Source: a virus
Taxonomy: Duplodnaviria > Heunggongvirae > Uroviricota > Caudoviricetes
Virus record (IMG/VR): IMGVR_UViG_2663763256_000001
Direction: 5' to 3' (one strand)
Length of the DNA stretch: 34,992 nt
The notes below the pieces were generated by a model. That model saw only the letters and a program-made list of their open reading frames with translations. It did not search any database and was not told the origin of the DNA. This document shows, one piece after another, positions 24,649-26,261 of this stretch. How positions within the stretch are numbered: the first letter of the stretch is position 1; every line of letters starts with the position of its first letter. The position numbers and the translations under genes are program-made.

Positions 24649-24981
24649 TTATTCAGTTTTGGATTTTGTCACCCTGCGTATCCACGCTTTCCCGTTACGC
24701 TCAATCTGAATTAGCTTTTCTATATTTTTTCGCCTTTCCCGTTCCTCCTGGCGCAAGAGCCTTACATCATCTGCCAGTCTGGTTTCTCTTTTCGCCACAG
24801 AGAGCATCCAGTCAAATGGCTCCACAACTGCACCGCAGATTTTACAGCGGACCTGACGCTCTTTTTCGTCAACCCGGACAGAAGCGTGATGGCAATATGG
24901 TCTTTCCGATGGCTCATAAAGAAAATTAACCTGATTACGAGGGTCATCCTCTTTTATCGGAAATAAAACGATATTGCTTAA
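24649..24981 (-). pseudogene. 3' fragment of a nin-region gene disrupted by IS5; its 5' remnant with RBS and ATG is at 26181-26204
   Basis: The reading frame continues unbroken into the IS5 left end. After removing IS5 and one TTAA copy, the gene reads AAAGGAGAGGAGC-ATG GAA ATA AAA CCA GAG GAT TAG TTA AGC AAT ATC... = MEIKPED-amber-LSNIVLFPIKEDD... Contains C-x-H...C-x-x-C motifs. Confidence 0.6.
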
Positions 24982-26176
24982 GGAAGGTGCGAATAAGCAG
25001 GTCATTTCTTCCCAAGCAGACTCGCTGATTAAAATTTCGCGGATCTGGGCCGATTTTTTTCCCGCAAACACATCGAATCAGCCTATTTAGGCTATTTTTT
25101 CCACCATTTCTGGCGTTATTTCCGGTTTTTACTGAGATCTCTCCCCTGACGTATCATTTGGTCCACCCGAAACAGGTTGGCCAGGGTGAATAACATCGCC
25201 AGTTGGTTATCGTTTTTCAGCAGCCCCTTGTATCTGGCTTTCACGAAGCCGAACTGCCGCTTGATGATGCGAAACGGGTGCTCCACCCTGGCACGGATGC
25301 TGGCTTTCATGTATTCGATGTTGATGGCCGTTTTGTTCTTGCGCGGATGCTGCTTCAAGGTTTTTACCTTGCCGGGACGCTCGGCGATCAGCCAGTCCAC
25401 ATCCACCTCGGCCAGCTCCTCGCGCTGTGGCGCTCCTTGGTAGCCGGCATCGGCTGAGACAAATTGCTCCTCACCATGAAGCAGATTACCCAGCTGATTG
25501 AGGTCATGCTCGTTGGCCGCGGTGGTGACTAGGCTGTGGGTCAGGCCACTCTTGGCATCGACACCAATGTGGGCCTTCATGCCAAAGTGCCACTGATTGC
25601 CTTTCTTGGTCTGATGCATCTCCGGATCGCGTTGCTGCTCTTTGTTCTTGGTAGAGCTGGGTGCCTCAATGATGGTGGCATCCACCAAAGTGCCTTGGGT
25701 CATCATGACGCCTGCTTCGGCCAGCCAGCGATTGATGGTCTTGAACAATTGACGGGCCAGTTGATGCTGCTCGAGCAGGTGGCGGAAATTCATGATGGTG
25801 GTGCGATCCGGCAGGGCGCTATCCAGGGATAATCGGGCAAACAGGCGCATGGAGGCGATTTCGTACAGGGCATCTTCCATGGCACCGTCGCTCAGGTTGT
25901 ACCAATGCTGCATGCAGTGAATACGCAGCATGGTCTCCAGCGGATAGGGCCGTCGGCCATTGCCCGCCTTGGGATAAAACGGCTCGATGACAGCGGTCAT
26001 ATTCTGCCATGGCAGAATCTGCTCCATGCGGGAGAGGAAAATCTCTTTTCGGGTCTGACGGCGCTTAGTGCTGAATTCACTATCGGCGAAGGTGAGTTGA
26101 TGGCTCATGATGTCCCTCTGGGATGCGCTCCGGATGAATATGATGATCTCATATCAGGAACTTGTTCGCACCTTCC
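24982..26176 (-). mobile_element. IS5 insertion sequence, 1195 bp, with 4-bp TTAA target duplication
   Basis: Terminal inverted repeats GGAAGGTGCGAATAAG (24982-24997) and CTTGTTCGCACCTTCC (26161-26176). TTAA at 24978-24981 and 26177-26180. Encodes a 330-aa transposase. Confidence 0.9.
25116..26108 (-). CDS. insH: IS5 transposase
   Basis: 330-aa ORF inside the IS5 boundaries with DDE-type motifs. Confidence 0.9.
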
Positions 26177-26261
26177 TTAACTAATCCTCTGGTTTTATTT
26201 CCATGCTCCTCTCCTTTGATGCGAATGCCAGCGGCAATTGAAGCCTGATAGCTAATTTCAC

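Follow-up and report, generated by a model that had tools for sequence, protein, structure and literature searches.

How did a single prophage gene come to carry both an insertion sequence (IS) and an in-frame amber codon, side by side, and is the gene lost as a result? In the window (the whole stretch of 34,992 nucleotides that was analysed), a prophage gene on the minus strand is split by a 1195-bp IS5-family element (24982-26176) into the following parts.

26181..26214, minus strand: 5' gene fragment, with the SD, the ATG and codons 2-8, the last of which is amber TAG
26214-26206, minus strand: SD GGAGAGGAG, at the 5' end of the interrupted gene
26204-26202, minus strand: ATG start of the interrupted gene, shared by its homologs
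26183-26181, minus strand: codon 8, TAG, a derived G>T nonsense change of an invariant Glu codon (GAG)
24649..24981, minus strand: 3' gene fragment, with codons 9-118 and the TAA stop, matching phrog_1621
24981-24979, minus strand: TTA, the first codon of the 3' part, in a frame that runs 110 further codons
24651-24649, minus strand: TAA stop of the interrupted gene, at the end of the 3' part

Once the IS is removed, the gene reads SD-ATG GAA ATA AAA CCA GAG GAT TAG TTA AGC... and spans 118 codons. Deleting the IS together with one copy of the flanking TTAA leaves a 662-nt sequence that at least 16 complete E. coli genomes carry uninterrupted, at 100% identity and with the TAG; because this reconstruction coincides with natural loci, the excision model is exact and the TAG occurs as a natural allele. 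Several independent assemblies share the same IS junction (GCA_001030545.1, GCA_907165985.1, ENA metagenome assemblies and a Logan run), which rules out a sequencing or assembly artefact.

The genes around the insertion follow the order YdaT - replication - DUF977 - interrupted gene - DUF7167 - hok - DUF968 - RusA - Antiterm, with this immediate upstream neighbour:

26262..26684, minus strand: DUF977 family gene, at the end of the replication module

The locus thus belongs to the early-right operon and falls after the replication genes and before the Q antiterminator, where the nin region of lambda lies. A reading of the sequence alone (hereafter the sequence-only reading) had called it a nin-region gene, which holds by position, from replication/DUF977 to DUF968-RusA-Q, and in no further respect: none of the Pfam and PHROG matches of the gene bears a nin name. 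The prophage has apparently complete lysis, head and tail ORFs inside the window and is not obviously cryptic. In a 99%-identical locus (L001), a gene neighbouring this one is annotated 'frameshifted; internal stop'.

The encoded protein matches the phrog_1621 profile over its full length (E = 4.9e-53; residues 1-117 on profile positions 1-120 of 134). Its 118 residues comprise a zinc ribbon with predicted ligands C38-x-H40...C54-x2-C57 and a long C-terminal helix, and in an AlphaFold model (mean pLDDT 70) the N-terminus is disordered, the zinc ribbon forms a small hairpin and there is a single long helix. The Pfam family Zn_Ribbon_TF (TFIIB-type zinc ribbon) scored 21.6 bits, under its gathering cut-off of 29; a sequence search of the PDB with the protein gave no match below E = 0.5, and a Foldseek search of the PDB gave none at E <= 0.001, the best being the TFIIB N-terminal domain at E = 0.38. 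The likeness to TFIIB is a generic zinc-ribbon resemblance only. The gene is real, given that its intact form occurs in isolated phages, including Stx2a-converting phages and ArgO145; it is an accessory prophage gene (phrog_1621) whose protein is of unknown function.

The inserted element is made up as follows.

24982..26176, minus strand: ISKpn26-type IS5-family IS, 1195 bp, recognised by its ends, length and identity to annotated copies
24982..24997: terminal inverted repeat GGAAGGTGCGAATAAG, low-coordinate IS end
26161..26176: terminal inverted repeat as the reverse complement, GGAAGGTGCGAACAAG, high-coordinate IS end
24978..24981: target-site duplication copy 1, TTAA, which fits YTAR and is a single TTAA in uninterrupted alleles
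26177..26180: target-site duplication copy 2, TTAA, on the other side of the IS
25116..26108, minus strand: transposase ORF, 330 aa, with Pfam DUF772 (PF05598) and DDE_Tnp_1 (PF01609), families read from the identical product in locus L005

The sequence-only reading had described a complete IS5 of 1195 bp that splits a gene, with 16-bp inverted repeats and a TTAA duplication, and our coordinates agree with it. Family membership is borne out by the ~1.2-kb length, the imperfect ~16-bp inverted repeats (which match at 15 of 16 positions), the 4-bp YTAR duplication and the single DDE transposase ORF. The name IS5, also given in that reading, stands for the family but not for the element: taking >~95% nucleotide identity as the threshold, the IS belongs with the four copies named ISKpn26 family by RefSeq, used here in place of the ISfinder reference sequence (99.4% to the copy in L002, 98.7-99.6% to the three others), and falls outside IS5 sensu stricto, with 91.2% to K-12 IS5A (NC_000913.3 273955-275149). 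An identity of that order denotes a different element under ISfinder naming practice. K-12 IS5 (IS5A/insH1) resembles the present copy in its 1195-bp length, near-identical 16-bp inverted repeats, 4-bp YTAR duplication and ~326-aa transposase, and is set apart by its low nucleotide identity; on that measure the element classifies as ISKpn26-type, not as IS5 proper. Its length of 1195 bp results from a 1-bp deletion at ~25145 relative to the 1196-bp ISKpn26-type copies, which changes the last residues of the transposase from ...MIRQWERSQ (326 aa) and extends it to 330 aa. The transposase, the interrupted gene and the early-right operon of the prophage are all read in the same direction.

ISKpn26 (IS5 family, 1196 bp) inactivates chromosomal genes by insertion, for example acrR in Klebsiella pneumoniae (PMC8023600). 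The present case shares with it the element type, the 4-bp repeat at YTAR, the DDE transposase and disruption by simple insertion, but differs in host and target (K. pneumoniae and CTAG there, E. coli and TTAA here) and in the nature of the gene, which was chromosomal in that study (PMC8023600) and is here an accessory gene of a prophage and a pseudogene before the IS arrived.

What codon 8 was before the amber is answered by alignment with uninterrupted homologs. The dominant form of the homologs is 118 aa long, begins MEIKPEDELSNIV... at the same ATG and has Glu (GAG) at codon 8. This residue is invariant in the alignment, down to homologs at 63-70% identity, including one named Kluyvera ascorbata by a source; residues 1-16 are conserved as a whole, with E6, E8, N11, F15 and P16 invariant. 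Since the homologs share both the ATG and the GAG, the TAG is a genuine nonsense mutation. It is also a minority state: the best 80 IMG/VR loci have GAG in 73 and TAG in 7, and an exact 57-mer is present in 91 complete E. coli records in its IS-free TAG form and in 1192 in its GAG form, so that TAG makes up ~7% of otherwise identical copies. The IS at the present TTAA was absent from the 5,426 complete genomes searched and, set against the 91 with TAG, this makes the insertion the later and rarer event; the distribution of alleles indicates that the amber predates the IS.

These results bear directly on the choices offered by the sequence-only reading. Its suggestion that the gene had been hit twice is upheld, with the IS as the second, later lesion. 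Its alternative, that the N-terminus was mis-assigned and that a true start downstream of the insertion site makes the 7-codon ORF and its TAG irrelevant, has in its favour some database entries that begin 3' of the TAG, such as P0030, which carries TAG-clade substitutions like a PGAP model starting at ATC. However, the dominant form of the homologs begins at the same ATG, which a good SD precedes; the alignment to the PHROG profile includes residue 1, and residues 1-16 are conserved. The sole canonical in-frame start after the TAG is a GTG at codon 61, past all four predicted zinc ligands (C38, H40, C54 and C57). The homolog alignment refutes a mis-assigned N-terminus, to which we give next to no credence.

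The nonsense mutation could still be tolerated, with expression by amber suppression, readthrough or non-canonical reinitiation at ATC, leaving the IS as the only truly inactivating lesion. The fairly wide spread of the TAG allele, the uninterrupted 110-codon frame 3' of it and the PGAP annotation of a 107-aa product from an ATC start all speak for this possibility. Against it, the affected Glu is invariant across the aligned homologs, and the stop is not conserved among them, as it would be in a gene dependent on suppression or readthrough. Suppressor tRNAs were sought in the 35-kb window and none was found, tRNA-Arg(tct) and tRNA-Met(cat) alone being present; amber suppressors are, to our knowledge, rare in natural E. 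coli isolates. The ATC start was picked by homology, with no evidence of initiation, and initiation at ATC is very inefficient. Laboratory amber-mutant phage genes, such as lambda Sam7, need supE/supF hosts; like them, the present one is a lambdoid phage gene with an in-frame TAG near its start, but here the TAG is a natural minority allele of a non-essential gene, with no sign of suppressor selection or of a conserved stop.

The substitutions that accompany the amber point the same way. Two of them are at the following positions.

24957-24955, minus strand: V17I, a nonsynonymous change of the TAG clade
24684-24682, minus strand: R108W, a nonsynonymous change of the TAG clade at an invariant Arg

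Together with A105G, R116K and the nonsense codon, they account for all five codons that differ between the window allele and the nearest intact allele, every one nonsynonymous. Intact alleles, on the other hand, show among themselves about 20 synonymous codon differences and 3 nonsynonymous ones (Fisher p = 0.002 against the TAG clade, on an argument that rests on very few substitutions, four plus the nonsense change). Purifying selection downstream of the stop was therefore not seen in this small sample, in which 4/4 clade-specific sense changes are nonsynonymous, and by its substitutions the TAG clade looks unconstrained. W108 is found in only some TAG alleles, which places R108W after the nonsense mutation; it also occurs in one GAG allele, implying recombination or homoplasy at codon 108. 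V17I, A105G and R116K may have preceded or followed the TAG. A 3' end of the G105/K116 type occurs in 78 records, which does not exceed the 91 that have TAG; this is consistent with confinement of this end to the TAG clade, short of per-genome proof. Set against decay are the persistence of the TAG allele in 91 genomes and the still-open downstream frame; a young pseudogene would look alike. Taken together, these observations make a tolerated amber unlikely, and we disfavour the proposal of the sequence-only reading that expression depends on suppression.

Around the two lesions lie further ORFs, which gene callers have in part taken up.

26149..26265, minus strand: small upstream ORF in the +1 frame, 38 aa in the window, whose GTG overlaps the DUF977 stop and which runs into the IS
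24649..25071, minus strand: chimeric ORF P0001, 140 aa, with an IS-internal GTG as its start, which crosses the IS end and enters the 3' gene fragment in frame

The upstream ORF, which matches phrog_37408 and phrog_19884, measures 27 aa in GAG alleles but 40 aa where a TAG allele lacks the IS. It is longer in the latter case because the G>T change at codon 8 also converts a TGA of the +1 frame to TTA. The idea that the 40-aa ORF and the 107-aa frame form one frameshifted gene was rejected, as intact homologs extend from the ATG over 118 aa and, in GAG alleles, a TGA closes the upstream ORF. The ATC-start product, the 40-aa ORF and the 140-aa chimera are probably artefacts of the two lesions.

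The chimera nevertheless raises the question of whether the IS rescues the amber allele. Translation could begin anew in the IS end, at the GTG at 25071 or at an internal ATG that would give MTCLFAPS+LSNIV...; from transposase or pR read-through transcripts, a protein would then be made in which 8 IS-encoded residues stand in for the 8 native ones at the N-terminus, ahead of a complete zinc ribbon and helix. The ORF is indeed open and in frame with codons 9-118, and was called in 24 contigs; transposase and gene run in the same direction, no strong terminator on the minus strand turned up in a simple scan from the transposase stop to the IS end, and the replaced residues fall within predicted disorder. 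But an in-frame fusion is expected by chance in ~2 of 3 cases, given that this IS end leaves two of the three frames open; the internal ATG has a weak SD ahead of it (GGGAAG), R108W already alters an invariant residue in this allele, and the IS allele is too rare to appear among the complete genomes. A scan of 24300-26800 for consensus promoters and terminators gave nothing informative, with counts within shuffle expectation. Such a rescue is, in our view, very unlikely, and highly improbable is its stronger form, in which the insertion would be a repair, read-out from the transposase gene restoring a silenced zinc-ribbon/coiled-coil protein with its N-terminus swapped for an IS-encoded one.

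If the lesions are independent, why are they adjacent? The sequence-only reading placed the amber exactly at the insertion site; the TAG codon is in frame, as stated there, but directly precedes the duplicated TTAA. YTAR duplications flank every one of the eight IS5-family insertions examined (the present one and seven from related prophage regions, L002, L003, L004 and L091-L094). Since YTAR includes TAA or TAG, ORFs seldom contain it, and only four such sites occur in the gene: one made by the G>T change itself and three pre-existing, one of them 3 bp after codon 8. The adjacency follows from this requirement for YTAR and the paucity of sites, and with a prior of ~1 in 3 it is not remarkable. 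A causal link would require a hot spot for IS5-family elements that the G>T change made or improved (GATGAGTTAAG -> GATTAGTTAAG). The change does create a second YTAR (TTAG), 4 bp away from the TTAA taken by the IS, and raises the local A+T, and IS5-family insertions recur in the same part of related prophages. However, it was the pre-existing TTAA that the IS entered and not the TTAG that had arisen, and the seven other insertions are spread over seven sites, of which one is codon 98 of this gene, two are in the ead/Ea22-like gene, two lie just after DUF977 and two are outside the gene, next to a chromosomal BCCT gene (L093) and downstream of the zinc-ribbon gene (L094). As 0/7 lie at the present TTAA, we reject an insertion hot spot and regard a causal link between amber and IS as extremely unlikely. 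The codon 98 insertion, an independent ISKpn26-type event at CTAA in strain 23AR0998, struck an allele whose 5' fragment is, according to RefSeq, open from the ATG into the IS, i.e. without a stop at codon 8. More generally, elements that target YTAR have few landing sites in ORFs, and IS5-family insertions near stop-like sequence are to be expected.

We therefore consider it very likely that this locus, a phrog_1621 accessory gene of a lambdoid E. coli prophage, was inactivated by two independent, sequential and ordinary lesions. In an ancestral prophage lineage, a G>T transversion would have turned the invariant Glu-8 codon GAG into TAG, ending translation after seven residues. The pseudogene allele would then have spread and drifted, gaining V17I, A105G and R116K and later R108W, before an ISKpn26-type element transposed, in a sub-lineage, into the TTAA of codons 9-10 and duplicated it. 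The TAG allele presumably makes no protein. The chimeric ORF, however, retains the whole zinc-ribbon/helix part in frame, so that loss of the protein may be incomplete.

Decay of an accessory prophage gene by nonsense mutation and IS insertion is an ordinary kind of event. Accessory genes of cryptic lambdoid E. coli prophages likewise gather nonsense, frameshift and IS lesions as selection on them relaxes, with IS5 in lomR of Rac and in nmpC of DLP12 as known examples; the present prophage differs in not being obviously cryptic. As routine decay of a non-essential prophage gene, the case has little biological significance, and its practical use lies in caution with annotation and in the naming of the IS as ISKpn26-type, not IS5. 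The IS lies in the early-right operon upstream of Q, where it may be polar on the downstream DUF968-RusA-Q genes and may affect the inducibility of the prophage.

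With the insertion sequence (IS) and one TTAA copy removed, the interrupted gene, which we call the zinc-ribbon gene (minus strand, 118 codons), reads AAAGGAGAGGAGC-ATG GAA ATA AAA CCA GAG GAT TAG TTA AGC AAT ATC..., and past the TAG the frame stays open for 110 further codons, ending at a TAA. The IS, with GGAAGGTGCGAATAAG and GGAAGGTGCGAACAAG as its terminal inverted repeats, was delimited by reading the window over 24300-26700 and by scripted reconstruction.

24982-26176, minus strand, IS element of exactly 1195 bp
24978-24981 and 26177-26180, TTAA target-site copies flanking the IS
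25116-26108, minus strand, transposase ORF inside the IS, 330 aa
26204-26202, minus strand, ATG of the zinc-ribbon gene
26183-26181, minus strand, TAG at codon 8
24651-24649, minus strand, TAA stop of the zinc-ribbon gene

At least 16 complete E. coli genomes carry uninterrupted loci that match the 662-nt IS-free reconstruction at 100% identity, TAG included, showing that the excision model is exact and that the TAG exists naturally without the IS. An assembly artefact is ruled out by the identical IS-gene junction recurring in GCA_907165985.1, in ENA metagenome assemblies and in one Logan assembly; additionally, scaffold KQ087929.1 of GCA_001030545.1 is 100% identical to window positions 14649-34992. 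Reading and reconstruction bear out the coordinates and the description of the split gene in the sequence-only reading.

Codon 8 is GAG (Glu) in every intact homolog, so a G>T nonsense mutation gave rise to the TAG. Of the 80 best-matching IMG/VR loci, GAG occurs in 73 and TAG in seven, and across 20,395 complete-genome records an exact 57-mer is present in its TAG version in 91 records and in its GAG version in 1192. No complete genome searched carries an IS at the window position; the sole full-length match, strain 23AR0998, has an ISKpn26-type copy ~254 bp further 3' in the gene. With TAG in 91 records and the IS at this site in none, the nonsense mutation came first and the IS second, and the proposal that the gene was hit twice is supported by both homologs and allele counts.

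The competing proposal of a mis-assigned N-terminus is refuted by this codon and by the homologs. With a sense codon 8, the product matches phrog_1621 (E = 4.9e-53; family function unknown) in an alignment from residue 1, and a protein search returned many homologs dominated by 118-aa forms starting MEIKPEDELSNIVLFPVKEDD..., along with 132-aa homologs reading ...DVEIKPEDE..., with a Val (GTG-type) codon where the ATG stands. The first canonical in-frame start past the TAG is a GTG at codon 61, beyond all four predicted zinc ligands. The PGAP/RefSeq model of the IS-free TAG allele (107 aa, WP_234975314.1, 3250-3573 of locus L001 from NZ_CP048359.1) uses a non-canonical ATC start, a homology-driven choice that carries no evidence of initiation, and probably reflects misannotation of a pseudogene.

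The homolog alignment, extending down to 63-70% identity and including a homolog named Kluyvera ascorbata by a source, shows E8, C38, H40, C54, C57 and R108 to be invariant. An AlphaFold model (mean pLDDT 70) has a disordered N-terminus (residues 1-36), a zinc ribbon in the form of a small beta-hairpin, and one long helix (63-117). Pfam gave Zn_Ribbon_TF alone, below threshold, and PDB sequence and Foldseek searches with the protein gave no significant match. Isolated phages, among them ArgO145 and Stx2a-converting phages, carry the intact gene, always annotated 'hypothetical protein'; it is a genuine phage accessory gene without an assigned function. In related prophages (L091-L092) it often immediately follows an ead/Ea22-like gene, and at least one protein, P0005 of Escherichia marmotae (202 aa), joins both in one ORF, which hints that these modules are functionally linked.

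It had also been suggested that expression depends on suppression. Five codons separate the window allele from its nearest intact counterpart (E8*, V17I, A105G, R108W, R116K), and each of these changes is nonsynonymous, whereas the intact alleles of the sample diverge among themselves by ~20 synonymous and 3 nonsynonymous codons (Fisher's exact test, 0:4 versus 20:3, p = 0.002, on small numbers). R108W, at an invariant residue, occurs in 4 of 7 IMG/VR TAG alleles and 26 of 78 matching complete-genome records; as only some TAG alleles have it, it is later than the nonsense mutation. The G105/K116-type 3' end is present in 78 records, not above the TAG count (91), which fits a restriction of these changes to the TAG clade. 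Within the window, ARAGORN yields tRNA-Arg(tct) and tRNA-Met(cat) only, and no suppressor tRNA. Dependence on suppression is thus disfavoured, and everything in these small-number sequence comparisons points to a TAG allele under relaxed constraint rather than a suppressed functional gene.

W108 (TGG) is otherwise restricted to the TAG clade and also appears in one intact GAG allele of the IMG/VR set, pointing to homoplasy or recombination between alleles.

The name IS5 given to the element is right for the family and imprecise for the element, which is ISKpn26-type by nucleotide identity. It is 99.4% identical to a 1196-bp copy in strain 23AR0998 (RefSeq: 'IS5-like element ISKpn26 family') and 98.7-99.6% identical to three further RefSeq ISKpn26-family copies, against just 91.0-92.4% for copies annotated as IS5 family (K-12 IS5A, 91.2%). 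ISKpn26 is described as a 1,196-bp IS5-family element generating a 4-bp direct repeat (PMC8023600). Compared with 1196-bp copies, the window IS lacks one base near 25145 (25140-25150; CTCTCCC-CTGACG versus CTCTCCCACTGACG), a deletion that alters the transposase C-terminus to ...GRDLSKNRK (330 aa) from ...MIRQWERSQ (326 aa). Independent contigs yield the identical 330-aa call, and the ISKpn26-type copy in L091 is likewise 1195 bp.

All eight IS5-family insertions examined duplicate a YTAR tetranucleotide (TTAA, CTAA/TTAG or CTAG), and since YTAR includes TAA or TAG, such a site can lie within an ORF out of frame only. The 357-nt zinc-ribbon gene has four.

nt 21, TTAG, arising from the G>T change
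nt 25, TTAA, insertion site in the window
nt 77, TTAA
nt 292, CTAA, independent insertion in strain 23AR0998

In the RefSeq annotation of 23AR0998 the 5' fragment reads uninterrupted from its ATG into the IS, hence without a stop at codon 8. An insertion that hits this gene would fall beside codon 8 about one time in three. Other insertions lie in the neighbouring ead/Ea22-like gene, at the DUF977 3' end or at sites outside the zinc-ribbon gene, never at the window TTAA, so a site-specific hot spot is rejected and a causal link between amber and IS is unneeded. In locus L093 (NZ_AP027813.1, strain 2017.13.01CC), an ISKpn26-type copy (2508-3703) adjoins a chromosomal BCCT transporter gene, with ~390 bp unannotated and then DUF977 and replication genes on its opposite side, which suggests an IS-associated deletion or rearrangement truncating the prophage.

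The two lesions also affect ORFs overlapping the gene.

26149-26265, minus strand (3156-3278 in L001), small +1-frame ORF whose GTG start overlaps the DUF977 stop (GTGA)
24649-25071, minus strand, chimeric ORF P0001, 140 aa, beginning within the IS in frame with codons 9-118

The small ORF, which covers the Shine-Dalgarno sequence and start of the zinc-ribbon gene, has 27 codons and a TGA end in GAG alleles; the G>T change converts this TGA to TTA, giving 40 aa in TAG alleles (annotated by PGAP), and in the window it continues into the IS (38 aa). It matches phrog_37408 and phrog_19884, the 40-aa product matching phrog_37408, and may be a translational-coupling ORF, or spurious. In P0001, an internal ATG would give MTCLFAPS-LSNIV..., eight IS-encoded residues replacing eight native ones. 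The frame, open from the IS into codons 9-118, might let the IS rescue the amber allele through a start at its end; this is unlikely, as two of three frames are open across that end and an in-frame fusion is the chance expectation.

The window is a lambdoid prophage with practically all genes on the minus strand, in the following order.

High-coordinate end: integrase, YdfE-like, DicB
Next: DicA/Cro-like immunity region, YdaT, replication gene, DUF977
Then: zinc-ribbon gene (interrupted), DUF7167, hok
Then: DUF968, RusA, Q-type antiterminator
Then: two tRNAs, holin/lysozyme/Rz, terminase, portal, ClpP-capsid fusion, tail genes
23073-23228, minus strand, HokD-type type I toxin ORF, 51 aa (Pfam HOK_GEF), between the zinc-ribbon gene and DUF968/RusA/Q
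19680-19756 and 19861-19936, minus strand, tRNA-Arg(tct) and tRNA-Met(cat), downstream of the Q-type antiterminator

Assignment to the nin region holds by position only, from the replication/DUF977 side to DUF968-RusA-Q. tRNA genes downstream of the antiterminator are a common layout in Stx-like lambdoid prophages. A 739-aa ORF (6951-9170, minus strand; Pfam CLP_protease and Phage_capsid_4) resembles a gene in which prohead protease and major capsid protein are fused, and the head and tail module seems undamaged. In L001, the uninterrupted TAG-allele locus (99% identical), the second gene downstream of the zinc-ribbon gene (4015-4436) is annotated 'frameshifted; internal stop', and its window counterpart (~23786-24207, minus strand) is broken into short ORFs (e.g. 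24097-24207, 36 aa), a further indication that the accessory region is decaying.

The locus is therefore a case of ordinary prophage gene decay, in which a circulating nonsense allele later received an ISKpn26-type insertion. It is mainly useful for annotation, where the IS needs another name and the ATC-start model, the extended small ORF and the chimera of IS and gene need correcting, and it illustrates why stop-like sequence tends to neighbour YTAR-targeting elements.
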